IMG/VR virus record: IMGVR_UViG_3300002461_000841
Span: 503 to 64,502 of that record
Length of the DNA stretch: 64,000 nt
Reading direction: 5' to 3' (one strand)
Source of the DNA: a virus
Shown: positions 768 to 61,822 of the stretch, piece after piece
How the letters are laid out: every line of letters begins with the position of its first letter
How positions within the stretch are numbered: position 1 is the stretch's first letter
Notes under the pieces: generated by a model
The model's database searches: none
What the model saw: only the letters and a program-made list of their open reading frames with translations
Told to the model about the DNA's origin: nothing
Position numbers and translations under genes: made by a program

Positions 768-1304
768 CTAGGCGCGCCGGGCGGAACCCTGCGCCTTCGC
801 GGCCCCATTGGCGGGGGCCTTGTTGGTCACCGGCGGCGCCTTGACCTCGGCCTTCGGCGGCGGCGCATCCTCGAGCGGCTGCTCGTTGATGACGTTCGCG
901 AACACGCCCGCCTCGCGCGGGTTGCCGTTCTGATCGACGCCGGGCTTGCCCTCCTCGTGAACCACGGTGCCGGTGATCTGCTGGCCCATGATCTGCGAGG
1001 CCTGGAACGACGCGAGGCTCGCGCCACACGCCACCATGAGCTGCTTGAGCCGGCCCGCGCCGGGCTTCGTCGTGTAGTTGTAGTTGTTGTAGGCGCGCTG
1101 CCCCTGGCACTCGCCCTCGGCGACCTCGAACGCGACCGAGATCATCGGGTTGCCGTTGTTCGAGTTCTTGTTCTCGACGTTCACGATGGTGAACTTGTAG
1201 TCCCCCGGCGGCACGAGAGGGCGTCTTTCGCCACCCCACGCCTGGACATCATCACCACTGAGATCGAGCTCGACGTTGAAGTCATTGAATTCCTGTTCGG
1301 CCAT
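768..1304 (-). CDS. DUF669-like phage ssDNA-binding protein
   Basis: LVPPGDYKFTI...GNPMISVAFEV pattern, low-complexity tail, next to a Sak4-like ATPase. Confidence 0.7.
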   Translation of the reverse strand: MAEQEFNDFNVELDLSGDDVQAWGGERRPLVPPGDYKFTIVNVENKNSNNGNPMISVAFEVAEGECQGQRAYNNYNYTTKPGAGRLKQLMVACGASLASFQASQIMGQQITGTVVHEEGKPGVDQNGNPREAGVFANVINEQPLEDAPPPKAEVKAPPVTNKAPANGAAKAQGSARRA

Positions 1305-1337
1305 CTTCCATTGTCCTTGTTGTGCCCCCTCGGGCGG

Positions 1338-2249
1338 TTAGCGCTGCTTCACCGCCGACGTGACCGTCGGCTTCGTGACCTGAGTGACGACCGGGAACAC
1401 CTTGGGGGTGGTAGCGGCCTTAGCAGCCGGCGGCGTGGCCGGCGCTGCGGGGCCCCCGCCGATGCGGGGAATCGCGATCGGCTTGGGCAAGAGCTTGCGA
1501 AGCGCAGCAGGATCATACCCGAGCGCGGTGATGAACGTGGAGTAGTCACCGATCAACGGATCGGGCAAGTTGTCGGCCTGCTCGCCGAGGCGGTTGCCGC
1601 AGATGTACGCGCCCCACTGGCGCGTGCGCATCTCATGCGCGACGACTTCCGTCTTGCCGTTGACCTGCTTGGTGTTGACCCGCGTGTGTACGAGGTAGTC
1701 GACACCGGCGGCGAACTTGTCCCCCTGCTTGCCGGGGATGAGCGGGCGGCCCTTGGGATCGTCCTCGTCGGGATGCTTGCAGAGCGTGTTCCACACAACG
1801 CTGGCGCCGAGCCCGTGCGTCGCCACGCGGAGCTCGCGAAGGTGCACGCCAAGGTCACCGTAGAGCCGGCGCGGATCGACAGCCTTGCCGCCGGCCGTCT
1901 GGATGTTGGTGAGGAACGATAGGTAGAGGTCGATGTAGAACGAGAACGCATCGACGACGATCGTCTTGATGCGCCCCGCCGCGATCAACGGCTTCACGCG
2001 CTCGCGGATCTGGAACATGTCGTTCATCGATTCGATGCCCCAGATCACCGGCGGCACATCGGGCTCGAAGAACGCGGCAGGATTCATGCGTTGGACGGTC
2101 TGGTACCCACCCTCGGCCACATCCGCGATGATGAGTGGCCGCGGGCATGTGGCACCCCAGCGCGTCTTGCCCGTGCGCGTGTCACCGTGCGCGAGCATGG
2201 TGAACACGGGAAACTGATCAGGCGGTTCGACTAGAGCGATGTCGCGCAT
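1338..2249 (-). CDS. AAA_24/Sak4-like ATPase (ssDNA annealing)
   Basis: Walker A GDTRTGKT, Walker B IVVDAFS; start moved to ATG 2249. Confidence 0.75.
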   Translation of the reverse strand: MRDIALVEPPDQFPVFTMLAHGDTRTGKTRWGATCPRPLIIADVAEGGYQTVQRMNPAAFFEPDVPPVIWGIESMNDMFQIRERVKPLIAAGRIKTIVVDAFSFYIDLYLSFLTNIQTAGGKAVDPRRLYGDLGVHLRELRVATHGLGASVVWNTLCKHPDEDDPKGRPLIPGKQGDKFAAGVDYLVHTRVNTKQVNGKTEVVAHEMRTRQWGAYICGNRLGEQADNLPDPLIGDYSTFITALGYDPAALRKLLPKPIAIPRIGGGPAAPATPPAAKAATTPKVFPVVTQVTKPTVTSAVKQR

Positions 2250-2518
2250 ACGGAGTGCTCCTTGGCGGTCTTGCCACGCTGGCTGCGCGGCGGTTCGGGC
2301 GGTGGCACCTGCCCCTTCTCGATCGTGCGATCGCAGTCGGTGCAGATCCCGGAGTGATCGACGAGCTTGACGACGTGGCCCCGACAATACGGGCAGCGAA
2401 TGTGCACACCAGCATGAGCCGGGTGAAACTCGTCAACAGGACAGTGCTCGCTACGACAGGGCTTGATGACGCCGATCATGTCGCTATCGTGCCGGTCCCG
2501 ATTGGCCTTGGTACTCAC
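2231..2518 (-). CDS. Small Zn-binding protein (Cx4Cx5Hx2H plus CxxC..CxxC ribbon)
   Basis: CRSEHCPVDEFHPAH, CPYC, CTDC; promoter box directly upstream. Confidence 0.55.
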   Translation of the reverse strand: MSTKANRDRHDSDMIGVIKPCRSEHCPVDEFHPAHAGVHIRCPYCRGHVVKLVDHSGICTDCDRTIEKGQVPPPEPPRSQRGKTAKEHSVCATSL

Positions 2519-2569
2519 GAGGGGCGTCACCCTAACGCATGGGGCTGACAGCGGAGGGGCCATTTGGGG

Positions 2570-3643
2570 CTACTCGGCCGATTCTGTGGGCAGCTCGATG
2601 CGCTCGCCGGTCGCGCAGTGATCGAACCAGTCGCACATGCCGTGACGATCGACGCAGTTGCGCCGTGACCGCGGAAAGCGCCCTGTCGCCCGCGCGAGCG
2701 CCATCTCGGCGGCTTGCTGGCGCAGATCCTCGCGATGCGAGCTGGCGGTGAACGCGCTCGGCGCGATGATCGTACGGTGGAACTGAATCTCCTTGGGCTG
2801 CTTGCCCGTAATGTTGACGATAACGCCCTTGAGCGCGCCCCAGCGCTTGTCGAGCTTGAGGCGCTCCCACAGGTCCATCTGCCCGAGCACCTCGCCCTCG
2901 TTGCCCCAACCATTGAGCGTCGAGTAGTCGAAGCGCGCGGCGGTCTTGTGCTCGAGGATGTACGTGCCGGCGGGGCGGCCGGCAACCTCGTGCGGATAGA
3001 ACGCGATCAAGTCGTAGCGGCACGACTCGCCCGTGCGGGGATCGACGAGATCCTGCTCGACGGCGAGCGGCACGATCTGCTCGTGCTTGTAGTAGAGCAT
3101 GTACGCCTGCGCGATCCGCCAGGCCTCGGCGATGTATGCAGGCTCCGAGAGCCCGTGGAGCTCAGCATGCAGCCCCTCAGGGCTCAGCGGATAACTAGGA
3201 TCGATCATGCGCTGGTAGTAGATCGCGAGGAACGTGTGGAAGAGCCCGCCGATCGCGAGTGCTGCGGCCTCGATGTGCATCGCCGGCTGCGCCCGATCAA
3301 GATAGCGGAGCTTCCACGCGTACCGGCACCGCTGCCAGAGCCCCCATGACGACCACCCCGTGCCCGTCGACGGCCCGCCGAGGCGGGGCAATCCGTACTT
3401 GGCGAACACCTGCATCGTCGCTTCGTCCGTCGGCATGAAGTTTCCGACGAAGAACGCGCGCTGCCTGTTGATCACGATCGGGCTGACGGGTTGATCGTTA
3501 TCGAGCGCGATCCCGTAGGAATCCGTGTAGAGCACCTCACAGTCCGGGACCTCGGGATGCTCCTGGCGCCCGTCCTCGAGCGGCGTGAGATCACGCCCGC
3601 AAAGAAAGCACGTCGAGATGCGCGGCGCGCGACGAATCTGCAT
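2570..3643 (-). CDS. PD-(D/E)XK exonuclease (RecB/AddB/Cas4-like fold)
   Basis: RYDLIA...ILEHKT catalytic motifs; 1+3 Cys pattern (QRC...NC...MCDWFDHC). Confidence 0.75.
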   Translation of the reverse strand: MQIRRAPRISTCFLCGRDLTPLEDGRQEHPEVPDCEVLYTDSYGIALDNDQPVSPIVINRQRAFFVGNFMPTDEATMQVFAKYGLPRLGGPSTGTGWSSWGLWQRCRYAWKLRYLDRAQPAMHIEAAALAIGGLFHTFLAIYYQRMIDPSYPLSPEGLHAELHGLSEPAYIAEAWRIAQAYMLYYKHEQIVPLAVEQDLVDPRTGESCRYDLIAFYPHEVAGRPAGTYILEHKTAARFDYSTLNGWGNEGEVLGQMDLWERLKLDKRWGALKGVIVNITGKQPKEIQFHRTIIAPSAFTASSHREDLRQQAAEMALARATGRFPRSRRNCVDRHGMCDWFDHCATGERIELPTESAE

Positions 3644-3971
3644 CGGGGGCTACCCTACTCGATGGGGCTGACATCGCGGTCCGCAGTCGAGGCATGCGAT
3701 AGCCATACGTTGGATTCCCGGCGGGCGGCCCAGCCTCAAGGACTACCCGCTCGATGACACCCGCCGCCGCGTAGCGTTGAACCACCCGATAGAACGTTCG
3801 CAGGCCCAACACCCCAAAGTTGTTGAGCACGCGATCATAGAGCTCACGTGACTTGATCGGGTAGTACCCGAGGCTACGCCGTCGGGGGCGGATCGCAGGG
3901 CGTGTGCCGGTAGAGGCATCGCTTGCGCAACCCTGATTGCACGACAGCGACGATCTGTTTGCACTTCGCAC
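3591..3971 (-). CDS. Probable winged-helix protein, paralogous to 1..393; 5' end uncertain
   Basis: RVLNNFGVLGLRTFYRVV resembles VRNDYGSADERTIYRGI. Confidence 0.4.
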   Translation of the reverse strand: MRSANRSSLSCNQGCASDASTGTRPAIRPRRRSLGYYPIKSRELYDRVLNNFGVLGLRTFYRVVQRYAAAGVIERVVLEAGPPAGNPTYGYRMPRLRTAMSAPSSRVAPDADSSRAAHLDVLSLRA

Positions 3972-3997
3972 AACGTTGTGAAGCCGACACGCGCCGT

Positions 3998-5617
3998 TTA
4001 CGCCGAGGCAAGGAAATCCTCCATGAGCCGATCAACGTCACCAACCTCGTCAGGGCCCATGATGGCCGTGCGCAAGGCGTCGATCGAATCGACGGCCGCA
4101 CCGACTCCGAGCGGATCAGCGGCCGACAGTTTGGTGATGAGCGCCCGGATGATGCGCTGATCGGTGAGGTGATCAGCGACGACGAAAATGATGTCCATCC
4201 CGCGCTGCGGGTTGTGCGACGGGAACGTGCGCATCTCGGCCTGCCCGATCACGGCCGGCGTGTAGTCGAGCTCGGCGAAGATCGCAACGGGTTTCGACGT
4301 CGGCGCGTGCGAGAGGTCAATGCCGACCTGGCCCACGGCCATCGTCGCGACGAGGAGCCCATTCGAGCACTGCCGCCACGCCTCGATCCGCCGATCGCGC
4401 TCGGCGGCGGCGATGTCGCCGTGGATCACCCATACCTCGTCGATCGGGCTCGACGCGTCGCGCGCGATCTGATTCGCGAAGTCCTTGTGCCAGGTCCACA
4501 CCACGACGGGGTGCCCGGCGGAGCGCAAGCGCGCGGCCTCGTTCGTGACGGTCTTGAGCTTCACACCTGTCACCTGCCGCCGATACGCGGCAAGGTGCGC
4601 GGCCGTGTTCGAGCGCTCGCTGAGGAGATGCCCCGCGAGGATGTCGAGCTTGTTGCGTTCGGTCTGGGGCACCGGAGCGATGATGATGCTGCGCGAGATC
4701 GGGGGCATCTCCTCCGTCACGTCCATCCACTTCCGACGCAGCATGATCTCGCCAAGGCGCGCGCGCAGCTCGGGCCCGTGTGAGAGGCCCGTGTAAACGG
4801 TGCCGTATCCAGACGACTCCGGTGCGCCATAGCGGTTCGCGAAGTCGTAGAAGCTCCCGAAGCCCTTCGGCGCGACGAGCGACAAGATCATCCAGAAGTC
4901 TGGGGGCAGGTCCCACACCGGCGTGCCCGTCATCGCGACGACGTTCTGCGCCTTGGCGGCGATGATCGACGCGGCAACGGCGCGCTTCGTCTTGTGGTTC
5001 GTCAGCGCATGGGCCTCGTCGAACACGACACGTCCATACTCCGACGGGCGCTGCCAGAAACGCAAGATGTCGTAGTGCGCGAACACGAGCGGTTTCTTCG
5101 CTGTTTCGACATCAAATTTCGTGCCGGTGAACACCCCGATCTCGGTATCGGGCCAGAGCTTGCGCATCCACCCGAGCCACACCCCGCGCGCCGGCAACGG
5201 CGCGACGACCACGAGCGGCCCATCGGCTGGATCGTGCGCCATGAGCGCGGATAGCGTCTTGCCGAGGCGCATGTCGTCGCCGAGAAGGGCCCCGCGCCGC
5301 TTGCCGAGGAACGCGGCGGCGTCGAGCTGGGTCGCACGCGGCGTGATGCCGCGCTCGGCGAGGCGCGCTACGAGGGCGTCGCGCGGTTCGGGGTTGCGCG
5401 ACGCGAACTCGAGCGTCAAGCGCGCAGCCTCGCTAGCCTCGATGAGCGGTAGCACGTTGCGATGGATGTGCCCGCTCACGATTGCCTCGACGCCTTGGAC
5501 GCCGCCCTTGAGCGCCGGGACGAGTCCAGGGATGCCACGCCGCGCGAGATCGCGCGCGATGTCGCACGAGACCCAGAACCAATCTGGGCCGTGACGGCGA
5601 TCGGCTGGCTTGATCAC
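3998..5617 (-). CDS. SNF2-family (SF2) helicase
   Basis: DDMRLGKT, FDEAH, MTGTP, GIDL, QAEMR motifs. Confidence 0.85.
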   Translation of the reverse strand: MIKPADRRHGPDWFWVSCDIARDLARRGIPGLVPALKGGVQGVEAIVSGHIHRNVLPLIEASEAARLTLEFASRNPEPRDALVARLAERGITPRATQLDAAAFLGKRRGALLGDDMRLGKTLSALMAHDPADGPLVVVAPLPARGVWLGWMRKLWPDTEIGVFTGTKFDVETAKKPLVFAHYDILRFWQRPSEYGRVVFDEAHALTNHKTKRAVAASIIAAKAQNVVAMTGTPVWDLPPDFWMILSLVAPKGFGSFYDFANRYGAPESSGYGTVYTGLSHGPELRARLGEIMLRRKWMDVTEEMPPISRSIIIAPVPQTERNKLDILAGHLLSERSNTAAHLAAYRRQVTGVKLKTVTNEAARLRSAGHPVVVWTWHKDFANQIARDASSPIDEVWVIHGDIAAAERDRRIEAWRQCSNGLLVATMAVGQVGIDLSHAPTSKPVAIFAELDYTPAVIGQAEMRTFPSHNPQRGMDIIFVVADHLTDQRIIRALITKLSAADPLGVGAAVDSIDALRTAIMGPDEVGDVDRLMEDFLASA

Positions 5618-5946
5618 AGACCGGGCCCACGCTCAAGATAGATTCGATTCGCGCGCACGAAATGCTTCCACGTATGCCGCCCCATGCCCCAGGTCAACGT
5701 GCTGTCAAGCCTTCGACTGGTTACGGTCACGTGCCCATCACGATCGGCACGAATGATCTCTAGCTGCTTGCCCGGCGGTTCGATCCACACCTGCCCGACC
5801 TGGGGCGCGATGTCGCGGGTTCGACGGTGGAGGCGGTACCAGTAGAGCCATTGCCAGCCGATCGCCACTAGCGCCGCAAGGAGGCCGAGCCCCACGAGCG
5901 AGATGACGACGAGCTTGAGCCACCCGAGAATGCGCCAGGGATCCAT
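5614..5946 (-). CDS. Hypothetical membrane protein
   Basis: N-terminal hydrophobic segment; box+TAGCTT promoter upstream. Confidence 0.5.
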   Translation of the reverse strand: MDPWRILGWLKLVVISLVGLGLLAALVAIGWQWLYWYRLHRRTRDIAPQVGQVWIEPPGKQLEIIRADRDGHVTVTSRRLDSTLTWGMGRHTWKHFVRANRIYLERGPGL

Positions 5947-5957
5947 CGTTGGACGCC

Positions 5958-5996
5958 AAGCTATCGTGTCGGGCTGACAGCCCTACGCGGTAAGGT
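5958..5996. promoter_or_regulatory. Bidirectional virus-specific promoter on the dyad GGGCTG-A-CAGCCC
   Basis: + strand CTGACA-11-TAAGGT; - strand CTGTCA-11-TAGCTT. Confidence 0.65.
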
Positions 5997-6009
5997 GCCC
6001 GACTCGCGA

Positions 6010-7565
6010 ATGGGCTCGACCGCGATCACGCTACAAGCCGCGATTCAGCGCCAACGGATCGACCGGATCCGGCGGGATAAACGCATGGATCAACGGGCGC
6101 GCCTGCTCGCACTCTGGAACTACGTGCTCGTCAACGAGCTCACCGAGGGCTCGACGTTCCTGGTCTCCGAACCCGACAAGCGCTGCTACATCGTCCTTGG
6201 CAGCTCGAACGAAGCGATCCGCTTGCCAGCGAAGCACGGCGATCGGTGGAACGCCTACTTCGCTACATCTACGAGGTACTCCGCGCGCACATCCTCGAGA
6301 ACGGCACCCACGTCGAGCTCCGGCGCTTCTCCGCGTTCAGTCGCGCGACCAAGACCGCGTACCTGTCGCAGTACAACGGCAGCATCTGGAAGATCGAAGG
6401 CTCCGAGGCGATCACCGCCGAGCCCAACGGCGTCGATGGCGTGTTCTTCGCCGACGACGACATCATCGACGCCGATCCGAAGTCGGTACACGTCGATCCG
6501 GACATCGGCCCCCACGGGATGCTGCTTCCGCGCCTGCTCACCATGAACTTCGCGACGACGGGCCTAGGCGGCATCACGCCCGAACAACAGCGCATGGCGC
6601 TCACGGTGTGGTTGTTCTGCCTCGCGTTCCCCGACATCATGCCGACCAAGCCCATCCTGCTCGTCGAGGGCGTGCGCGGCTCGGGCAAGAGCGCCAGCAT
6701 GAAGTTCATCCAGCTCGCGCTGATGGGCCAGATGCACCCGATGATCATGCAGAAGTCGAAAGAGGACGACTTCGGCGTGGTCCTGCTCCGGGCGCCGATC
6801 GCTCTCTTCGACAACATGGACAACTACATCGAGTGGGTCCCCGACGCGATCTGCGCCTACACGACCTCGGGCGTGTGGACCCGTCGCCGGCTCTACAGCG
6901 ACGACGACTCGATGACGATCCGCCCGCACGCGTTCATCGCGGTCTCGACGCGCAATCCAGCGAGCTTCCGCCGTGATGACGTAGCCGATCGGTGCATCAT
7001 CATTCGCCTCGAGCGCATCTTGGAGTTCATCCCCGAGGAACAGCTCAAGGCGCGGATCTTGGAGGAGCGCCCCAAGCTCCTCGGTGAGTACATCTGGTAC
7101 ATCGGCAAGATCGTCGACGAGCTACGCAAGGATGCGCTCGGCGTGCGCGGCGAGACCCACCGCATGGCCGACTTCGCGCTCATGGCGCGCGCGATCGGGC
7201 GCGTGATGGGATGGACCGACGCTGACGTCGATGGGCTCATGATCGCGCTGCAGGACGAACGCGACGCCTTCATCAACGAGGACGATCCGCTCATCGAGCT
7301 GCTCGAGATGTGGCTCTCGTACAAGGCCAACTCCGGGATCAAGAACGCGGGTCGCATCATGACGGCGACACAGTTGCACTCGGAGCTCGACACGCTCGCC
7401 CAGGCGAAGAACCTCACATGGCGCGCGTCGGCACGCTCACTATCGCAGCACCTACGCGCGCCACACCTAGAGAAGCTGTTCCTGATCGATCCGGTGACCG
7501 TGCACGGCAGCAAGGGCTTCCGCATCTACCGCCAGACCGAGACCCCGTTGGAGATCGTGGGCTAG
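6010..7565 (+). pseudogene. SF3/D5-like replicative NTPase-helicase with a frameshift near 6246-6262
   Basis: Walker A GVRGSGKS and Walker B LFDN in the 6246 frame; the plausible N-terminus lies in the 5995 frame and turns into S/R/T-rich shadow after WNAYF. Confidence 0.6.
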
Positions 7566-29888: not shown

Positions 29889-30596
29889 ATGGCCGGCACT
29901 GTTGGTGTTGCTCCCGGAACCACGACCATCCAGATGGCGGATGGCAAGACCATCTCGATCGAGGACTGGATCGACGACAAGCTGTACTCGACGGTGCAGC
30001 TCGTGAATGCGCAGAGCTCGCCCGTCGAGGCGTTCATCGCTGGCCGCAGCCAGCCGATCTCGGGCGGCACGCGCGCGTCCACCCAGGTCGACACGAACGT
30101 TCCGCGCTCGGGCGACTCGGGTCTCATGCAGTCGTGGGAGATGTACATCTACTCCCTCTGCGTGTCCCCGGTCCGCGTGATGCGTCCGCCCACCGGCGCC
30201 GCGAACCCGACCCTGGCCGATGGCTCGGGCGCGCTCTCGAACGTCCCGACGCTGCAAACGCTGCTCTCGGTCGATCGCGTCACGTACCTCAAGTTCCGCT
30301 ACAACGAGAAGGACTACTCGTACGGCGTGATGTCCGACTACCCGGCGGGCAAGGGGTACTCGGTGTTCTCGACCAACGCGATCTTCGAGAACGCGAACAA
30401 CGGCGTCCCGTCGCCGCGCGACCGGCAGGCGCTCGTGCTGCCCATCTGGCTCCGCGAGAACCTCGCGTACAAGATGAGCTTCGCGCCCGAGGCGCCCCTG
30501 GTGATCAACCAGGCGGCGTCGGATGGCCAGACGGCACTGACCTTCATGGACGTGAAGACGTCCGCGTACGGTCTGATCCGCCGCAACGTGACCTAG
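29889..30596 (+). CDS. Putative major capsid protein, single jelly-roll-like
   Basis: Beta-rich alternation (LYSTVQL, WEMYIYSLCV, YLKFRY, LPIWL, VKTSAYG); strong AAGGAG SD; own terminator; no HK97 signature. Fold not verified. Confidence 0.55.
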   Translation: MAGTVGVAPGTTTIQMADGKTISIEDWIDDKLYSTVQLVNAQSSPVEAFIAGRSQPISGGTRASTQVDTNVPRSGDSGLMQSWEMYIYSLCVSPVRVMRPPTGAANPTLADGSGALSNVPTLQTLLSVDRVTYLKFRYNEKDYSYGVMSDYPAGKGYSVFSTNAIFENANNGVPSPRDRQALVLPIWLRENLAYKMSFAPEAPLVINQAASDGQTALTFMDVKTSAYGLIRRNVT

Positions 30597-54209: not shown

Positions 54210-54359
54210 CATCCGGTCCGACCGGCAGCTATCCTACCAGATTTCGGCTACTTAGCCGATTGGCCCGGGACTTGGATATTAGGGCACCATGGAATCGAAC
54301 GGTCCGAAAGGCCCGGCCGATTCGACCGACCGACCTACCGACCCAAGGAGCCGATCCGC

Positions 54360-54569
54360 ATGTCTTCCACGTTTGTTCCGGGCAAGCTCAAAAAGCTCCC
54401 CACGCTTTGCACTGCGCAGTGCTGCGATCTCAAGATCGAGAGCGCGAAGCAGCGCGTGTGGTTGTGCCGCGTCAATCACGGGGTGACCGTCGAGCGTTAC
54501 GACGCGCCGAGCGGCCGGTGGGAGATCTACGCCGGTAGCTGCTCCGCCCGCGCGGGGGTGTATCTGTGA
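54360..54569 (+). CDS. Small hypothetical protein
   Basis: AAGGAG SD after ACC(G/T) run. Confidence 0.55.
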   Translation: MSSTFVPGKLKKLPTLCTAQCCDLKIESAKQRVWLCRVNHGVTVERYDAPSGRWEIYAGSCSARAGVYL

Positions 54570-54802
54570 TCGAGCTTAGGAGCAGCTTTCCGAGTGAGCG
54601 CTCGGCGCGCGCGTTTGGTGAGCACGTCTCCGATCGCCTCAATTGCAAACACGCGGTGTCCATACTCGAGGTCAACCGCGAGCCTACTTGCTGGTATCGC
54701 CTCGCGGTTCCCGCGCGGCACATCAAGCGCGCGGAAGAGCTGCGTATCACGTGGGAGGCGGCCATCGCAGCCGTTGGTTCCTCGGAAAGTGAGATCAAGT
54801 AA
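54566..54802 (+). CDS. Small hypothetical protein
   Basis: GTGA overlap. Confidence 0.5.
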   Translation: MIELRSSFPSERSARAFGEHVSDRLNCKHAVSILEVNREPTCWYRLAVPARHIKRAEELRITWEAAIAAVGSSESEIK

Positions 54803-55164
54803 TGCGCGATCGGTATCTGCTTCTGCAACGTGACGGCAAGGTCTACGTGTGTCTCCACACCACGGCCACCGATGAACCCGTCCTGATCTTCCATTGGTGG
54901 CTAACCAAAGCGACCCCAAAGCAAATGGCCGACTACGGCATTGCTGACGGTACCCCGGTCCGCCCGAACAACGATGGCACCTATCAGATCGAGGGGCGCG
55001 GGATCTTCGTCGCGGCCATCAACGGCGGCGCGACGCTCGCCGAGCGCGTCGAGCGCGTCTCGGCCCCAGGACCCGATGCGCGCAAGGTCCGGCGGCGCGC
55101 GGTCCGCTGGTATCAAGGTGGCTGGCAGGTTCTCTCTAAGCGCGAAGGATGGATCGCCCTATGA
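54802..55164 (+). CDS. Hypothetical protein
   Basis: TAATG coupling. Confidence 0.55.
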   Translation: MRDRYLLLQRDGKVYVCLHTTATDEPVLIFHWWLTKATPKQMADYGIADGTPVRPNNDGTYQIEGRGIFVAAINGGATLAERVERVSAPGPDARKVRRRAVRWYQGGWQVLSKREGWIAL

Positions 55165-55346
55165 CGCGCAAGATCACCTATCACGTGGTGCGGCTCGTTG
55201 CACCTAGTGCGTTCTATCCAGACGGCTCGTGTCTAGTGTGCTTTTCGGGCCCGTCGCTGGAACTCGCGACGCAGATCCACGCGCGTGAACTCCGGCAGGG
55301 ATTCGACGCGAATTTGTTGACGCGCATTGCTACCGACGACAACTAG
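55161..55346 (+). CDS. Small hypothetical protein
   Basis: ATGA overlap. Confidence 0.45.
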   Translation: MTRKITYHVVRLVAPSAFYPDGSCLVCFSGPSLELATQIHARELRQGFDANLLTRIATDDN

Positions 55347-55435
55347 CGCGGTTTCGCTCGTCACGCGTGCTCTGGCACGCGAGCCGATCAAAGCCTCGCA
55401 CCGACCGACCAACCGACCGACCGATAGGAGCTTCC

Positions 55436-56014
55436 ATGTCTGATCTCGCTACGCTCGCCGCTGCGGCGGGCATCTCGTCCAAAGCGCTCGCCAAGATCAC
55501 CGCGAATCTCGGCCCCAATGGCCTCGGCACCGCGTCAGAGGCCGAGCTTCGCGCGCATGGCGTCGCACCCGTGCTCGCCAAGCGCCTCTCGGCAGCAATC
55601 GCGCTCGGGCGGACTTGCGTGATCCGTGCGGGGGAGCCCAAAGCGGTGATCGGAATGCCAGCGCTTGCAGCGGCCGAGCTTGCACCGCTGATCGAGGGCC
55701 TACAGCAAGAGCTGTTCTTCACGATCGCCCTCGATGTCCGTAACCGCTTGCTCGGCGTGTTTGAGGTGGCGCGCGGCACGGTGGCTAGTGTCGAGGTCCA
55801 CCCCCGCGAAGTCTTCCGGCCGGCGATCCGCATAGCCGCAGCGGGGATCGTGATCGGGCACAATCATCCGAGCGGGGACCCCACGCCGAGCGCCGAAGAT
55901 ATCGCGCTCACGCACCGCCTCAAAGAGGCGGGGACGATCCTCGGGATCCCGGTGATTGATCACATCGTCATGGGATCCGGTGGCCGCTTTCGTTCGATCG
56001 CGGAGTGCTTCTGA
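55436..56014 (+). CDS. radC: RadC-family JAB-domain protein
   Basis: VHPREVF, HNHPSGDPTPSAED, DHIV. Confidence 0.92.
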   Translation: MSDLATLAAAAGISSKALAKITANLGPNGLGTASEAELRAHGVAPVLAKRLSAAIALGRTCVIRAGEPKAVIGMPALAAAELAPLIEGLQQELFFTIALDVRNRLLGVFEVARGTVASVEVHPREVFRPAIRIAAAGIVIGHNHPSGDPTPSAEDIALTHRLKEAGTILGIPVIDHIVMGSGGRFRSIAECF

Positions 56015-56217
56015 TGCGTACGCTACCATCCACGGGGCGCCCATCAACGCGCGGCAGCGTCGTGCTCACCGTCCGCTTTGACGTGACGGGGTTGACCGCC
56101 GATCAACGCTCGCGGTTCTTAGGCGCGCTGATCGCGCAAGCGGAGGGCCTCGACGACGATCCCGACGGATACCCCGAGCTTCCTTACCTCGACTTCGTGA
56201 TCACTCCAGCCCGCTAG
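56014..56217 (+). CDS. Small hypothetical protein
   Basis: TGATG coupling. Confidence 0.45.
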   Translation: MRTLPSTGRPSTRGSVVLTVRFDVTGLTADQRSRFLGALIAQAEGLDDDPDGYPELPYLDFVITPAR

Positions 56218-56265
56218 CCGATCAACCAACCTACCGACCAACCGACCGCCCAAGGAGCTACCGCC

Positions 56266-57492
56266 ATGAAGATCACAAGCTGCAATCTCACCGGGCCTAC
56301 GGGCATCATCGCCACGCCGATCACCATCGAGGCCTCGATCAACACGTCCACACTACCAGCGTTTCACGTGCCCGCGTTCGGCGATCCTAAGACCTCGCCC
56401 CGGCTCCGTGAGATGTCCACGCGCATGCGCGCGGCGATGTATGCCGTGGAGCTCACGTGGCCCGTGGGACGCATCGACATCGCGATCACGGGCGCCGACA
56501 AGATCCACGCCGCCGCCGCGCTGGATCTGCCGATGGTGCTTGCCATTGCCGGGGCCGGGCTTCCCCTCGACGGGATCATGGTACTCGGTGAGCTGGGATT
56601 CGACGGGTCCGTGCGCGCCGTGCGCGGCGTGACCCAGGCCGTGCTGCTCGCCAAGTCGCTCGGCATGCGCGGGATCCTCGTGCCGGCCGTGAACGCTCGC
56701 GAGGCGTTCGCCGTCGCGGACGGATTCCCGGTCCACGCGGTCCTGAACCTCGCTAACGTGCGCGACGCGCTCGCCGCCGAGGTGACGCAAGTGATCAGCA
56801 CGCGGCCCCGCGTCGACGGGCCGGACTTCCGCGACGTGCGCGGGCAACCAGCCATCGTCCAGGCCGTCGAGGCCGCCGTGAGGGTGCGCGCGCCGATCGC
56901 GTTGTCGGGCCCGCCGGGCACCGGCAAGACCATGATCGCGCGCCGCGTGCCGAGCATCCTGCCCGCGCTCACTCGCATCGAGGCGCTTGCCGTCACCGCC
57001 AACTACAGCGCGTGCGGGCTCGCCGAGGATCTCATCGCCGAGCGCCCGTTTCGCGCGCCCCACCACACGATCTCAACGGCGGCGCTTGTCGGCGGTGGCG
57101 CTGGTCCACGCCCTGGCGAGGCGCAGCTCGCCGCGTATGGGGTTTTGTTCCTAGACGAGTTGCACGAGTTCTCGCGGCTCGCGATCGAGGGCCTCGCAAA
57201 CGTACTCGAGCGCATGCCGGCCCGCGAGCGCCCGCTCGTGATCGCCTCGACGATGCCTTGTCCGTGCGGCTGGCGTGGCTCGGTCGAACGCGTGTGGGCG
57301 CTCACTCAGTGCTGCCAGTGCAGCACTGAAACGGTACGCCGGTTCCGCGAGCGGTGTGAGGGCTTCATGAAGGTTCTCGGGATGGCCGAACCGATCGCCG
57401 TTCAGCCCGTCACCATGACCATGCTCCGCGATGGCGCCGAGGGCGAGGCGAGCGCCGCGATTCGTGCGCGCATCGAGGCCGCCCATGGTTAG
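56266..57492 (+). CDS. Shortened, divergent ComM/YifB (Mg-chelatase-related) ATPase
   Basis: LDLP.. LGELG.DG.VR.V.G, D..DVRGQ, GPPGTGKTM, PFRAPHHT, G.PGEA.LA..GVLFLDE, PCPCG. Confidence 0.85.
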   Translation: MKITSCNLTGPTGIIATPITIEASINTSTLPAFHVPAFGDPKTSPRLREMSTRMRAAMYAVELTWPVGRIDIAITGADKIHAAAALDLPMVLAIAGAGLPLDGIMVLGELGFDGSVRAVRGVTQAVLLAKSLGMRGILVPAVNAREAFAVADGFPVHAVLNLANVRDALAAEVTQVISTRPRVDGPDFRDVRGQPAIVQAVEAAVRVRAPIALSGPPGTGKTMIARRVPSILPALTRIEALAVTANYSACGLAEDLIAERPFRAPHHTISTAALVGGGAGPRPGEAQLAAYGVLFLDELHEFSRLAIEGLANVLERMPARERPLVIASTMPCPCGWRGSVERVWALTQCCQCSTETVRRFRERCEGFMKVLGMAEPIAVQPVTMTMLRDGAEGEASAAIRARIEAAHG

Positions 57493-57682
57493 CCAGGTCG
57501 ACACCGCGCTCGCGGCCCTCAACGCGCATCAACGGCGCTACCGCGGCGAGGTCATGACCGCCGGAACCTTCGCTAGCGCGGAGTTTGATCGCCTCTACAC
57601 CGTGTGGATCTGTGCGCGGTGGGACGCCGGAGACGCGTGGGCCCGTCGGGTCTGGACCACGCGCCCCACGGGGGGCGCATGA
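57485..57682 (+). CDS. Small hypothetical protein
   Basis: Overlap coupling. Confidence 0.45.
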   Translation: MVSQVDTALAALNAHQRRYRGEVMTAGTFASAEFDRLYTVWICARWDAGDAWARRVWTTRPTGGA

Positions 57683-57999
57683 GCGCCATCGGCACCGTGA
57701 TCGAGACGCGCTACGGCACGATCGAGATCACGGGCTGGGATGGAGCCTGGCGCCACGAGATCTATCGGCCCAAGGAACCGCACCCGAGTGAACCCTGGAA
57801 CCGTGAGATCCGCGAGCGCTCGATGGCCACGGGCCCCGACGACATCAGCCCCCCGATCACCATCGGCCTCGACTACCGCGCCGAGTGCCCCGTGTTGCTG
57901 GCTCAACATCAAGCACACCCGCGAGCGCCACGACGCCGCGCTTGCGGCGATTCCTGTCACCCCCACGCGCTAGCTTCCATTCACCGACCAACCGACTAG
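57679..57999 (+). CDS. Hypothetical protein, possible 1-nt frameshift in C4 run 57888-57891
   Basis: Removing one C gives ECPCCWLNIKHTRERHDAAL...TR ending at TAG 57971-57973. Confidence 0.4.
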   Translation: MSAIGTVIETRYGTIEITGWDGAWRHEIYRPKEPHPSEPWNREIRERSMATGPDDISPPITIGLDYRAECPVLLAQHQAHPRAPRRRACGDSCHPHALASIHRPTD

Positions 58000-58011
58000 G
58001 AGGGCCACCCC

Positions 58012-58473
58012 ATGGCTACAATCAAGTTCGCTACGTTCACGCTCATCGTTTCCGACGATCTCGCGGTGCTCGCGGGGTTCACCCTCGACGCCGAAGGCCG
58101 CGCGACACTACCAAAACCGTTCTTTGAGCGGCGCTTCATTGAGGCTTACGACGACATCGCCATGCGCAGGGTCGAGACTGGCCGCGCCGCCCACGATGAT
58201 GCGGTGCTCGTCCGCATGATCGCGCTCAGTGAGCAGGCCTCGCATCGTGCCGACGAGCGCAAGACGGCCGAGCTCGAACTCGACACACAACGCACGCGGC
58301 TCCGCGCCGCCTCACTCGAGACGGCCATCGCGGGGCAGGCCACCGCGATCGGAGCAATCGCGCTCGAAGTGCAATCCAAGCGCGTCGAGGCGTCGCAGAA
58401 TGACCTCGCACTGGGCAAGATTCACGAGGCGATCCATGCGTTCAACACCGAGCGCGCGAAGGCGGCCCAATGA
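58012..58473 (+). CDS. Coiled-coil hypothetical protein
   Basis: AGGAGG SD. Confidence 0.6.
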   Translation: MATIKFATFTLIVSDDLAVLAGFTLDAEGRATLPKPFFERRFIEAYDDIAMRRVETGRAAHDDAVLVRMIALSEQASHRADERKTAELELDTQRTRLRAASLETAIAGQATAIGAIALEVQSKRVEASQNDLALGKIHEAIHAFNTERAKAAQ

Positions 58474-59048
58474 CCATCATGATTGGCCTCACGATCACCA
58501 GCACGTACGGTGCGCCGTCCACCCACACAGACACGCCCGGCGCCCTCGACTACGAGGTCACGCTCACCGACGCCGAGGGCAACGCTACGCAGGGCGAGGT
58601 AACGCTCTGTCCACGACAGTACGACGGCAAGCTCGCCGCCTGGGGCACCCTCGACAATTGGTGCTCGGACGCCCTTGTGAGCGTCGCGTGCCTGCTCACC
58701 GATCATAGCCGCGCAGAATTCTTTGCCGCGATCGTCGCCGATTGCATCGACGACGACACCGAACGCGAAATCGAGGTCGAGTTGTCGGCCGCGAAAGCCG
58801 CCGAGAGTGATGTCACCGAGGTGGCTAACGCGCCCGATGGCATCCAATCGCTTCGCGATGGCGCACGCGTGCCGCCGGCGGTGGAGTGGGGCGAGGCCGC
58901 CGCCAACGCGGCGCGGGCCACCGTGGGCGCATTCCGCCCTATCCCTGAGGTGATCGGCGACGCATGGCGCGCCGCGTACGAGCTTACGGCCGCAAAGCTC
59001 GCCGAAGAATGGGTTGCCGAGCACGATGTCAAGCGGGCGGATGGTTAG
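58470..59048 (+). CDS. Acidic hypothetical protein
   Basis: ATGA overlap. Confidence 0.55.
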   Translation: MTIMIGLTITSTYGAPSTHTDTPGALDYEVTLTDAEGNATQGEVTLCPRQYDGKLAAWGTLDNWCSDALVSVACLLTDHSRAEFFAAIVADCIDDDTEREIEVELSAAKAAESDVTEVANAPDGIQSLRDGARVPPAVEWGEAAANAARATVGAFRPIPEVIGDAWRAAYELTAAKLAEEWVAEHDVKRADG

Positions 59049-60546: not shown

Positions 60547-60971
60547 TGCCGATCGACTTCCTCGCCAGGCTCTCACCCAAAGCTCGCGCGCGCTACGAGG
60601 CCACCAAGGAGTGGCATGACCGCAGGTGCGCCGAGGCCACGACGTTCACTGACGCCGAGCTTGCCGACAAGCTCACGTACTACATGGCCAACAGCACGCA
60701 GTTGCCACAGTGGGCCCCAGGCGAACCCGTGTACGACGCCGCGATCTGGCACGTGCTTCTGCCCGAGGTGATCAAACGCCTCAAGATACCGCCGCGACTC
60801 GGACCCTCGTCACGCGCCGTAGTGACCCGCCATGTGGTGGACGTGTTCCGGCGCCGCAGCAACACCAACATGCGCGAAGCCGAGGAGCTTGCCCCGCTTC
60901 TCGTCGATGCGGTGCTCGCGGGGCTGCAGCACCTCGGCAGCACGACCGCTACGGACAAGGGACCAACGTGA
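60546..60971 (+). CDS. Hypothetical protein
   Basis: TGATG coupling. Confidence 0.55.
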   Translation: MPIDFLARLSPKARARYEATKEWHDRRCAEATTFTDAELADKLTYYMANSTQLPQWAPGEPVYDAAIWHVLLPEVIKRLKIPPRLGPSSRAVVTRHVVDVFRRRSNTNMREAEELAPLLVDAVLAGLQHLGSTTATDKGPT

Positions 60972-61822
60972 AGCTAACCCCCGAAATTCAGACTACGCTC
61001 GCGAACGTCGAGCTTGCCATCGTCGGTCAGACCCTCGGGCTACGTCTTCCCGCCGGACTCGATCGCGCGCTCTATGTGAAAGCCAACAAGGCGCTCGAGG
61101 CGCTTGGCGGGAAGTGGAACCGCGGCGCGAAGGCGCATCTGTTCGGCAACACGTCGGCCGCCGAGCTCGAAGCGAGCCTTGAACGTGCGATCACGCTCGG
61201 CGAGGTCACGACGGCCGCCGACCTGGGCTTCTTCGCAACCCCGCCCGCGCTCGCGAAGAAGCTCGTGGGGCTCGCTGACGTTCGCCAGGGCATGACCGCG
61301 CTCGAACCGAGCGCCGGCGAGGGCGCCATCGTGCGCGAACTACTCCGCGTTGGCGCTAAGGTCACGATCTGCGAACGCGACCCGAAACGGTTCGCGAAGG
61401 CCGAGGCCGTGGCTAGCGAGTTCAAGCAGGGCGCGCGAGGACCGTTCATCAACTCATGGGGGCGCAAGCCCGAAGATGCTGACGGAGCGTTCCCGGCCTT
61501 CGAGCCGTTCGATGACTTCATGGACGTGCCGGCAGCGCAGGAGTTCGATCGCGTCGTGATGAACCCGCCCTTCTGCAAAGTCGGCAAGGGCGATCACCTC
61601 GATCACGTGTACCACGCGTGGCAGTTCTTGAAGCCCGGCGGCGTGCTCGTCGCCGTGCTGCCGTCGAGCGTCGAGTTCCGCACCGATAAGCGCCATCGCG
61701 AGTTCATCGCGTGGTGGCAGGACGAAGCCTACGCCTTCAACTTGCAACCGCTGCCGGCGGGCTCGTTCAAGGCGAGTGGCACGATGGTGAACACGTGCGT
61801 GCTGCGCATGGTGAAGCCGTGA
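60968..61822 (+). CDS. N6-adenine DNA methyltransferase
   Basis: FFATP, LEPSAGEGAI (motif I), VVMNPPF (motif IV). Confidence 0.85.
   Translation: MKLTPEIQTTLANVELAIVGQTLGLRLPAGLDRALYVKANKALEALGGKWNRGAKAHLFGNTSAAELEASLERAITLGEVTTAADLGFFATPPALAKKLVGLADVRQGMTALEPSAGEGAIVRELLRVGAKVTICERDPKRFAKAEAVASEFKQGARGPFINSWGRKPEDADGAFPAFEPFDDFMDVPAAQEFDRVVMNPPFCKVGKGDHLDHVYHAWQFLKPGGVLVAVLPSSVEFRTDKRHREFIAWWQDEAYAFNLQPLPAGSFKASGTMVNTCVLRMVKP

Follow-up and report, generated by a model that had tools for sequence, protein, structure and literature searches.

A virus contig from IMG/VR encodes, close to an intact RadC, a shortened form of ComM (YifB), the motor that drives branch migration specifically during transformation in Gram-negative bacteria. 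Alignment to full-length ComM proteins showed that the predicted viral protein keeps the cis-face ATP pocket, and that it has lost the elements that would act on a neighboring subunit or on DNA, along with the domain that serves as a docking site for DprA. Judged by its sequence, this short ComM is a host-derived copy, and its relatives form a conserved family of ComM-derived proteins. The pattern of lost motifs favors a subunit that would be acted on by its neighbor but would not act on it, i.e., a poison, a cap, or at least a protein with a non-motor role. We tentatively prefer, with somewhat less than even confidence, the reading that the short ComM is an ATP-binding subunit, unable to act on its neighbor, that caps or poisons the ComM of the host.

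A viral locus with RadC and a short ComM

The window analyzed here is a stretch of 64,000 nucleotides (positions 503 to 64,502 of record IMGVR_UViG_3300002461_000841) from an uncultivated large virus of a water system; the contig, a virus record in IMG/VR, is 69,887 bp long. An ORF check reproduced the coordinates that an earlier note on this DNA had assigned to RadC, to the small ORF that follows it, and to the 408-aa ComM/YifB-like protein (Table 1). The leader of RadC is polymorphic, with one additional ACCA unit (an insertion at 55403) in a drinking-water population from 2024. The 70-aa ORF is probably translationally coupled to RadC; its sole database match was itself, and Pfam, PHROGs, PADLOC, and the ESM Atlas were also uninformative. 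Neither Pfam nor PADLOC returned a match for the 69-aa ORF, and nothing informative was found for the 153-aa ORF in Pfam, PHROGs, PADLOC, or the ESM Atlas. Between 53 and 59 kb, no sigma-70 promoter-like site and no convincing terminator were detected. A contig joint from 54343 to 56218, seen in one sequencing run, was rejected as a repeat artifact, as one of its sides consisted of 21 letters within the ACCN repeats. The orphan methyltransferase further downstream resembles the methyltransferase modules of very long “polyvalent” proteins of phages and plasmids (PHROG profiles of 1259–3925 positions).

Table 1. Features of the RadC–ComM locus, in window coordinates.
Feature	Position	Strand	Remarks
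69-aa orphan ORF (54360–54569) with (ACCN)5 leader and AAGGAG	54325..54569	+	First of four ACCN-leader genes
(ACCN)6 leader before the RadC SD (TAGGAG)	55400..55423	+	
RadC, 192 aa: HhH-like N-terminal part and intact JAB/MPN domain	55436..56014	+	PF04002
70-aa orphan ORF, acidic C-terminal half	56005..56217	+	10-nt overlap with RadC end
(ACCN)6 leader before the short-ComM SD (AAGGAG)	56225..56248	+	
Short ComM, 408 aa: Lon-like N-domain, linker, AAA+ core with embedded 4-Cys zinc site, one lid helix	56266..57492	+	
Lon-protease-like (ChlI) domain core, aa 46–143	56401..56694	+	PF13541
Walker A GPPGTGKT, aa 215–222	56908..56931	+	
Walker B VLFLDE, aa 293–298	57142..57159	+	
Sensor-3 position (Ala311) and contracted pre-sensor-1 hairpin	57196..57234	+	Alignment, AF2 model
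Sensor-1 codon: Met330, not Asn	57253..57255	+	
Zinc site C332, C334, C350, C352, and 6-aa insert found only in the window copy	57259..57321	+	
Replaced SGPLLDRIDL segment; Gly372 at the equivalent of Legionella R381	57355..57390	+	
153-aa orphan ORF (58012–58473) with (ACCN)3 leader and TAGGAGG	57983..58473	+	Fourth ACCN-leader gene
Orphan DNA methyltransferase	60710..61822	+	PHROG matches; PADLOC mad2, E 1.5e-22

RadC had been described as intact, which agrees with our analysis: PF04002 was matched with an E-value of 4e-36, and the HNHPSGD...SxED metal motif is complete, with H142, H144, P145, S146, D148, S152, and D155 invariant among viral RadCs. The protein scored 132.1 bits against TIGR00608 (cut-off 133.85), its N-terminal part aligning from model position 45, and 139.9 bits against NF000642 (cut-off 180). 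The named best cellular relatives of the viral RadC were RadC proteins of Kofleriaceae.

RadC was located beside a ComM-like gene in three other IMG/VR records, or four virus records including the window, one of which also encoded a DinG-like helicase and a DUF932 protein nearby. None of 199 cellular ComM loci contained an adjacent RadC. RadC was not found in two further viruses with a short ComM (the 221-kb relative G002, and G003), the 80 viral RadC loci that ranked best had no ComM-like gene within 6 kb, and none was found in the five whole RadC-bearing records that were searched. The pairing is thus facultative.

The short ComM has lost trans-acting and DNA-contacting elements

Pfam detected the Lon-like N-domain (PF13541, aa 46–143, E 1.1e-13) and the Mg_chelatase AAA+ core (PF01078, E 1e-42) in the 408-aa protein, but not the C-terminal domain PF13335. 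The full-length ComM models scored below their cut-offs, with 205.9 bits for TIGR00368 (cut-off 362.4; positions 8–415 of 499 aligned) and 129.9 bits for NF007365 (cut-off 530). The Walker A and B motifs and the PCPCG motif (331–335) are retained, as the earlier note had reported, and the “contracted segment” that it had pointed out after Walker B corresponds to a deletion of 11 residues relative to full-length ComM, which takes out the first strand and the tip of the pre-sensor-1 β-hairpin. The early stop is likewise real, as the protein ends just past the first lid helix. No credible remnant of the C domain was found 3′ of the stop in any frame; a frameshifted remnant was considered on the basis of one weak match in the +1 frame (19 bits, with one of seven queries) and dismissed as noise. 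The proposed alignment to full-length ComM mapped the hairpin, the three trans-acting arginines (Legionella R316, R381, and R463), and the C domain as missing. It also revealed three losses that had previously been overlooked: the sensor-1 Asn is replaced by Met, the LLDRIDL arginine motif is replaced, and the sensor-3 Arg is replaced by Ala.

An AF2 model of the short ComM was compact (pLDDT 94.6, pTM 0.92) and contained no hairpin, with about 7 residues between helix 304–316 and strand 324–329. Its best fold match was Legionella ComM (8rxd, E 4.5e-29), and the N-domain also matched the Lon-domain hexamer 8rxs. In comparison with Legionella, two of three DNA-contact positions in the Lon domain are still positively charged.

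We counted motifs among 36 proteins of the short family and 166 full-length ComM proteins, naming residues after the Legionella structure paper (PMC11612176). In Legionella ComM, the γ-phosphate is coordinated in trans by R316 and R463, and Ps1-β (324–336, containing R328) is turned toward the DNA (PMC11612176). The sensor-3 Arg (R316) was present in 7 of the 36 short proteins, the equivalent of R381 in one, and the R463 Arg finger in one, with no equivalent of the latter in the window protein; each was found in at least 159 of the 166 full-length proteins. The same high frequency among full-length proteins applied to the pre-sensor-1 hairpin Arg, deleted in 32 of the 36 short proteins, and to the C domain, missing from 35. 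This Mg-chelatase C domain is the docking site through which DprA recruits ComM (bioRxiv 10.1101/2024.10.21.619469). The sensor-1 Asn was found in 161 of the 166 full-length proteins versus 26 of the 36 short ones, with S, C, A, M, or D in the other 10. Two further motifs are lost in the short family: LAPADxxKxG in the Lon domain, which is conserved in full-length ComM, and GGHN preceding Walker A. Their loss could weaken ring formation itself.

Other parts of the protein have been maintained. The Walker A Lys and the Walker B Asp are present in all 36 short proteins and the Walker B Glu in 35, with each of the three found in at least 159 of the 166 full-length proteins. The zinc cysteines C332, C334, C350, and C352 are invariant, the helix-2-insert loop and the Lon-like ring domain are kept, and conservation of the PGE loop, the RPFRxPH motif, Walker A/B, and the four zinc cysteines is as strong across the short family as in real ComM.

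The short ComM belongs to a conserved family under purifying selection

The short family comprises at least 36 proteins of 389–449 aa, which are 40–53% identical to each other, carry one common internal deletion, and stop at an equivalent point. In the phylogeny that the earlier note had called for, the short clade was monophyletic (99% support), with Kofleriaceae-like Myxococcota ComM as its sister group (98% support); the nearest full-length ComM is only 43–45% identical to the family. A search of 301 Myxococcota genomes, with six candidates scored in each, yielded no short form, and the six top scorers were full-length. The idea that the short form is an ordinary chromosomal gene of Myxococcota was therefore dropped. 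Polyangium sp. 6x1 has a second ComM-like gene, but this is a full-length divergent paralog.

Three lineages of the short family were found on virus records. No relative was present among the INPHARED phages, where protein matches were mostly to contaminating or flanking bacterial comM; no PHROGs family matched the short ComM, and BFVD contained one distant two-domain analog only. A scan of metagenome contigs yielded, among the matches listed, almost exclusively full-length bacterial ComM, and the pattern RP.V[VI]A..NPCPCG detected ordinary Polyangiaceae ComM and one short-type fragment (L165) in genome contigs. Nine of ten further ComM-like genes in IMG/VR likewise lacked the C domain, so that the phenomenon may be general. 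G002 has the short ComM (46% identical) and about 15 other genes (27–56%) in common with the window virus. The neighbors of the short ComM in G002 and G003 had no matches in Pfam, PHROGs, PADLOC, or the ESM Atlas; apart from RadC, the genes surrounding the short ComM are unconserved orphans.

As dS is saturated at 40–53% identity, selection was assessed from differences between near relatives rather than from a family-wide dN/dS. In these near relatives, which came from low-depth contigs (depth 2–4), the short ComM showed 12 synonymous and 8 non-synonymous differences, where 26% synonymous is expected under neutrality; 13 of the 20 fell on third codon positions (p=0.004), and pN/pS was approximately 0.24. 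For RadC, the same comparison gave 12 synonymous and 2 non-synonymous differences. A relative carries an in-frame 9-nt indel in the short ComM. The C-terminal tail is comparatively rich in non-synonymous differences, and it too is affected by an indel in a relative. The region 56067–58538 was 100% identical in an independent 2024 study, with samples taken 9 years apart. The pattern of differences from near relatives shows that the short ComM is under purifying selection.

The term “degenerate,” used for this gene in the earlier note, thus applies in the catalytic sense but not in that of a decaying gene, considering both the purifying selection and the conserved family; neither full-length domain content nor neutral decay, either of which had been thought to speak against the proposal, was found. 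The suggestion of a remnant of integration at comM did not hold: the gene is N-terminally complete, lies within the contig, and is preceded by a strong SD and a leader of its own. We reject it because the family is monophyletic with the same deletion and stop, is under purifying selection, and has its own leader. Also nearly refuted, in our view, is a neutral relic, i.e., a captured or interrupted comM heading for loss: the window copy does depart from family-conserved positions more often than any other member (16 times, with N330M and the 6-aa insert among the departures), and its tail is less constrained, but most of these departures are conservative, the intact ORF has a dedicated leader, the family is monophyletic with a narrow length range, the low pN/pS and the identity over 9 years contradict decay, and the gene has diverged from its G002 counterpart to the same extent as core genes have.

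Host proteins as plausible partners

No RecA, YraN, or DprA above the cut-off, and no second ComM-like gene, was found in G000, G002, or G003, which makes host proteins plausible partners of the short ComM. In the proposed search for an integrase and att sites, a tyrosine recombinase with XerC/D-like architecture was located about 10 kb downstream, but there was no sign of an att site, a tRNA, or a flank of host DNA. A temperate lifestyle is therefore unproven; the recombinase may only resolve dimers, while a persistent lifestyle of the virus is possible. PADLOC reported only generic AAA+/Lon matches at the locus (RtcR, 26 bits; BrxL, 16 bits, E 7.6e-4), with no match for RadC or the small ORFs.

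Possible functions of the short ComM

As we picture the preferred mechanism, the short ComM and RadC would be made from their own strong leaders, after which the short ComM would join host ComM on DNA in an ATP-dependent manner, forming a mixed hexamer. There it would bind ATP and be clamped by the arginines of the neighboring subunit, but would fail to activate the next subunit, to move along DNA, or to be recruited by DprA. The mixed hexamer would be capped or poisoned, and branch migration driven by ComM suppressed. RadC, as a JAB protein predicted to process nucleic acids, would be regulated together with the short ComM and act as its partner on these DNA intermediates. Inactivation of comM is known to make the gain or deletion of large inserts about 100-fold less frequent and to shield islands from curing (PMC11441513), and mobile genetic elements gain from disabling comM because branch migration serves to remove or replace long heterologous DNA. 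The family is old, however, at 40–53% mutual identity and 43–45% identity to the nearest full-length ComM, so that co-assembly with a given host ComM is not assured.

The main competing explanation, which we regard as unlikely but deserving of serious consideration, is that of a non-motor viral DNA-handling factor: an ATP-switched DNA-binding ring or adaptor that works with RadC. Through its Lon-like ring, helix-2-insert loop, and zinc site, it would form a helicase-like/nuclease-like pair with RadC on viral replication or recombination intermediates, perhaps comparable to ComM–YraN and RadA–CoiA minus translocation. The ComM-like conservation of the Walker motifs, PGE loop, RPFRxPH, and zinc cysteines is consistent with this, as are the two positively charged DNA-contact positions and the proximity of RadC in four virus records. 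Furthermore, a cognate nuclease exists for both ComM and RadA (PMC13663708), and the divergent ComM paralog of Polyangium sp. 6x1 adjoins a RecA paralog. The short ComM has, however, kept neither the main DNA pore loop nor any trans-arginine, and the absence of a viral RecA, YraN, or DprA leaves no evident viral recombination pathway for the short ComM to serve. In addition, two other short-ComM viruses lack RadC, and the remaining neighbors are unconserved.

We consider it improbable that the short ComM is a decoy, either for a partner of ComM or for a host sensor of ComM-like rings, acting, for example, through sequestration of the nuclease YraN or mimicry of a Lon-AAA+ defense protein such as BrxL, instead of poisoning ComM. 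YraN binds ComM directly and coevolves with it (PMC13663708), but no YraN interface on ComM is given in the sections consulted. The Lon-like domain is structurally akin to that of BrxL, and the block contains an orphan methyltransferase, typical of anti-defense regions, but the PADLOC matches, including that to BrxL, are generic. DprA cannot be the target of a decoy, as the domain that binds it is deleted.

Even less probable is that the short ComM has remained an active homo-oligomeric ATPase or helicase in which Arg322-Pro323 and other residues replace the lost arginines and pore loop. These two residues, at the hairpin stump, are 86–89% conserved in the short family, the Walker B Glu and sensor-1 Asn persist in 35 and 26 of the 36 proteins, respectively, and the fold model is confident and compact. 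The lid has been lost, however, together with three independent trans elements, and RP also occurs in ordinary Polyangiaceae ComM (FPARPLVVAA), meaning that it is not a new invention of the short family. The sensor-1 Met of the window copy and the variability of this position in 10 of the 36 proteins argue that hydrolysis is dispensable.

Comparison with known systems

The short ComM is homologous to the ComM proteins of Legionella (PDB 8RXD) and Vibrio cholerae over aa 10–361 (phmmer E 2e-42), sharing the Lon-like N-domain, MCM-type AAA+ core, Walker A/B, helix-2-insert loop, and 4-Cys zinc site. It differs in being virus-encoded and about 100 residues shorter, in its sensor-1 Met, and in lacking the hairpin tip, the sensor-3 Arg, the LLDRIDL Arg, and the C domain with R463 and the DprA surface.

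Inactivation of comM by insertion has been reported for the AbaR islands of Acinetobacter baumannii, phage WO, and other elements (PMC11441513). The presumed target pathway and the pay-off, protection from transformation-driven removal, would be the same in our preferred reading, but those elements break the host comM in cis, whereas the short ComM, as an intact, conserved, and diffusible protein, would act in trans; no insertion into comM was seen. AAA+ paralogs with an incomplete ATPase that retain the fold and oligomer contacts and function only in mixed assemblies include BchD of Mg-chelatase, beside BchI, and the clamp-loader subunits delta and delta-prime. Like these, the short ComM keeps the fold and has lost part of the ATPase machinery. 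Unlike these cooperative proteins, which are encoded with their partners, it has a host protein as its only candidate partner, and its effect may be inhibitory.

The arrangement of a ComM-type protein adjoining a small predicted nucleic-acid-processing enzyme is reminiscent of ComM–YraN, but the viral neighbor is a RadC of the JAB fold rather than a YraN of the PD-(D/E)XK type, and the viral ComM-type protein lacks the motor elements. Mobile-element RadC/JAB proteins are also encoded by the YeeS-type prophage genes of E. coli. The window RadC resembles mobile-element RadCs in being a stand-alone protein with an intact metal motif near a DNA methyltransferase, and differs from them in being paired with a ComM derivative. 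RadC/JAB domains also occur within polyvalent proteins of conjugative elements (PMC5512222).

In a broader sense, and more doubtfully, large viruses of GC-rich bacteria may have repeatedly kept C-domain-less ComM proteins, incapable of acting on an adjacent subunit, as diffusible antagonists of branch migration in the host, sometimes with RadC. Such proteins would constitute the first protein inhibitor of ComM and would achieve in trans what mobile elements are well known to achieve by inserting into comM. As a conserved viral ComM with only the ATP-accepting half of the interface, the short ComM would be a concrete candidate for switching ComM off in trans. It would also offer a natural separation-of-function allele with respect to hexamer assembly, recruitment by DprA, and the role of the pore hairpin, and the locus would add a further case to the question of why RadC, a protein without a known function, travels with mobile elements.

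Structure of the short ComM

The window covers most of its source record (IMG/VR, virus, 69,887 bp), has a G+C content of 65%, and consists mainly of orphan genes. ORF and Pfam analysis bore out what the earlier note had read at this locus: radC is followed by a small ORF and a gene for a shortened, 408-aa ComM/YifB-like protein ("short ComM"), which scores far under the curated YifB cut-offs. Alignment to Legionella pneumophila ComM (PDB 8RXD; residues 10-361, E 2e-42), whose numbering is used here, likewise confirmed the intact Walker A and B motifs, the contracted segment after Walker B, and the early stop.

In Legionella ComM, Walker A spans residues 218-225 and E302 is the catalytic glutamate. 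R316 (sensor 3) and R463 (arginine finger, C-terminal domain) contact the gamma-phosphate of the adjacent subunit, R381 is an additional sensing arginine, and the DNA pore loop is the pre-sensor-1 hairpin 324-336 (R328), with a second loop at 281-289 (PMC11612176). The C-terminal Mg-chelatase domain is the route by which DprA recruits ComM (preprint 10.1101/2024.10.21.619469). Both Walker motifs, the second loop (PRPGE), and the four zinc cysteines are retained in the window copy. The R316 position is alanine, the R381 position glycine, and the sensor-1 asparagine has become methionine. The hairpin lacks its first strand and its tip, both lost in a deletion of 11 residues. R463 and the surface for DprA are missing as well, because the ORF goes no further than the first lid helix. 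The full-length domain content that the earlier note had allowed for was not seen, as PF13335 is absent and no credible C-domain remnant was found downstream of the stop. An AlphaFold2 model from 50 sequences was very confident (pLDDT 94.6, pTM 0.92) and has a mere short linker at the hairpin site; its closest structural match is ComM 8rxd (E 4.5e-29, TM 0.72).

Features of the locus and of related loci (G000, source record; G002, 221-kb relative; L numbers, fetched loci)
Feature	Location	Strand	Remarks
RadC	55436-56014	+	PF04002, E 4e-36
70-aa orphan ORF	56005-56217	+	overlaps RadC end
Short ComM, 408 aa	56266-57492	+	PF13541 and PF01078 present, PF13335 absent
Orphan DNA methyltransferase	60710-61822	+	best PHROG matches inside polyvalent-protein-type profiles of 1,259-3,925 positions; PADLOC mad2 match
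ACCN runs (3-6 tetramers)	54325-54344, 55400-55423, 56225-56248, 57983-57994		upstream of strong SDs
Tyrosine recombinase, 312 aa	G000:C1:67412-67912 / L376:3089-4027		XerC/D-like architecture, N-terminal SAM-like domain; PF00589, 64 bits
RadC beside C-domain-less ComM-like gene	L011:9776-12894		GC-rich IMG/VR record; DUF932 and DinG-like helicase nearby
RadC beside C-domain-less ComM-like gene	L017:1451-4297		GC-rich IMG/VR record; 320-aa N-terminal extension on ORF
RadC beside C-domain-less ComM-like gene	L049:185-2103		GC-rich IMG/VR record; mycobacteriophage GP88-family gene
Replication block	1338-7565; G002 197,665-204,900		shared by window and G002
235-aa protein	29889-30596; G002 72,870-73,574		56% identical, best-conserved gene
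Second ComM paralog region, Polyangium sp. 6x1	L323:1401-9306		contig of 16,961 bp

Conservation and phylogeny of the short family

Among 5.8 billion proteins searched, relatives of 393-432 aa (45-53% identity) formed one block, all without PF13335, and full-length proteins (510-560 aa, 43-45% identity) ranked after it, several of them named Kofleriaceae or Deltaproteobacteria. An exhaustive representative search added some 20 short clusters at the 50% level. The hairpin segment was shortened in 43 of 267 collected proteins (22 residues, 17-25 in a few, versus 33), nearly all of which also had a replaced arginine motif and an early stop.

Conservation of motor elements in 36 complete short-family members (389-449 aa) and 166 full-length ComM proteins
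Element	Short	Full-length
Walker A Lys	36/36	163/166
Walker B Asp	36/36	164/166
Walker B Glu	35/36	163/166
Sensor-1 Asn	26/36	161/166
Sensor-3 Arg	7/36	160/166
Hairpin Arg	deleted in 32/36	kept in 163/166
R381-equivalent	1/36	159/166
C-domain Arg	1/36	160/166

In a column-by-column scan, 53 positions reached 90% conservation or more in the short and the full-length proteins alike; the Lon-domain LAPADxxKxG and GGHN before Walker A, conserved in real ComM, are relaxed in the short family. Sensor 1 is relaxed across the family and lost in the window copy, which has the most departures from family-conserved positions (16, mostly conservative).

The short family was a single clade with support 99 in both a FastTree tree of 100 rows and an IQ-TREE LG+C20 tree of 44 rows. 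In the latter, Kofleriaceae-like Myxococcota ComM is its sister (support 98), to the exclusion of Polyangiales, other Myxococcota, and other phyla. The closest named cellular relatives of the window RadC are also Kofleriaceae, and both proteins therefore indicate the same host lineage. Three short-family lineages were found on IMG/VR virus records, and one short-type fragment came from a contig of 2.9 kb that had been placed in the bin of a Kofleriaceae MAG. Across 301 Myxococcota genomes only full-length ComM was detected, the six best scorers (380-417 bits) all being Kofleriaceae-like. Cultured Polyangium sp. 6x1 has a second ComM, a divergent but full-length paralog that is apparently encoded in two separate frames. 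A MoxR-VWA pair lies on one side of it and, on the other, a RecA paralog and then DndB; this neighborhood looks like a conflict or defense island.

The C domain is also missing from nine of ten additional ComM-like proteins of IMG/VR, which are spread over several lineages. More divergent ComM-like genes (353-419 aa) without PF13335 occur on IMG/VR contigs of 89-301 kb (L013, L021/L024, L033, L055, L058), some with shortened hairpins of their own, which suggests that ComM was trimmed repeatedly or anciently in large viral or virus-like contigs.

Association with RadC and shared leaders

RadC was the sole recurrent neighbor among 19 viral ComM-like loci, adjoining the ComM-like gene in the window, L011, L017, and L049 and lying within 9 kb of it in L020/L022 and L027. 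It was found near none of 80 full-length metagenome ComM loci and none of 119 cellular ComM loci. In the other direction, no ComM-like gene lay within 6 kb at the 80 best viral RadC loci or anywhere in five whole RadC-bearing records, and neither G002 nor G003 (a 136-kb record), which both carry a short ComM, contains RadC. The association is thus significant, though facultative. One 203-aa protein (P0270, contig of 50,774 bp) is 95% identical to the window RadC across 67% of its length without a Pfam RadC call, and may be the rearranged or frameshifted RadC of a close relative.

A strong SD immediately preceded by repeated ACCN tetramers occurs at exactly four genes in the 64-kb window: a 69-aa ORF at 54360, RadC, short ComM, and a 153-aa ORF at 58012 (13 pattern matches versus 3.7 expected). 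This argues for deliberate, shared expression, and the run may act either as a regulatory site or as an unstructured leader that enhances translation. The RadC run has one extra ACCA unit in the 2024 drinking-water population; the leader is absent upstream of short ComM in G002 and G003.

The main alternative to a block of host ComM, and the somewhat less likely of the two, is that short ComM and RadC act together on viral DNA in a role other than that of a motor. Such a partnership would have counterparts in transformation, with its helicase/nuclease pairs, and in polyvalent proteins, with their RadC and RadA/Sms modules (PMC5512222).

Maintenance of the gene

A remnant of integration at comM, another origin raised in the earlier note, is effectively excluded by the conserved single-clade family. 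No tRNA, att site, or host flank was seen. For an integrase, which the earlier note had suggested looking for, the candidate is a tyrosine recombinase ~10 kb downstream of short ComM and ~2.9 kb past the window end, whose role may be that of an integrase or of a dimer resolvase of the Xer type. Two genes of this kind occur in G002, one of them lying ~11 kb upstream of the short ComM there; no serine recombinase was found in the virus.

Neutral decay is effectively excluded too, by third-position bias and by persistence. Compared with more distant relatives from two other studies, short ComM has 12 synonymous and 8 non-synonymous changes and one in-frame 9-nt deletion, and RadC 12 and 2, counts that rest on low-depth contigs. 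Third positions hold 13 of the 20 changes in short ComM (p=0.004; neutral expectation 26% synonymous), a concentration that would not arise from sequencing errors. The stretch is present both in metagenomes of activated-carbon filters (2015) and in drinking-water metagenomes (2024), and positions 56067-58538 are identical between contigs of the two, a 2,472-bp contig of 2024 showing zero differences. Engineered water-system communities therefore include this virus as a stable member. A biofilter metagenome contained a diverged relative.

G002 (CheckV 100%) has ~15 genes in common with the window at 27-56% identity. Its short ComM (46%) falls within this range, so that its divergence matches that of core genes. 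Gene order around short ComM differs between the two. With G003, short ComM is the only gene in common.

Possible function of the short ComM

A literature search returned no account of a virus-encoded, C-domain-less ComM, and no PHROG family or named viral structure matched it. The ComM family and fold are familiar; new are its viral carriage and the systematic loss of the half that acts on the neighboring subunit. The losses are asymmetric: the ATP-binding, arginine-receiving face is conserved, and the arginine-donating face is gone along with the DNA hairpin, lid, and DprA dock.

The most likely, though tentative, reading is that short ComM would enter host ComM assemblies ATP-dependently and, once joined, block them. 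We favor it because the losses are asymmetric, because ComM assembles into hexamers only when ATP and DNA are both present (background given in PMC11612176), and because the virus itself encodes no partner for such a protein: neither RecA nor YraN, the cognate nuclease of ComM (PMC13663708), nor DprA over the cut-off was found in G000, G002, or G003, nor a second ComM-like gene in the virus. A block of host ComM would also fit the demonstrated benefit that mobile elements gain from comM disablement (PMC11441513).
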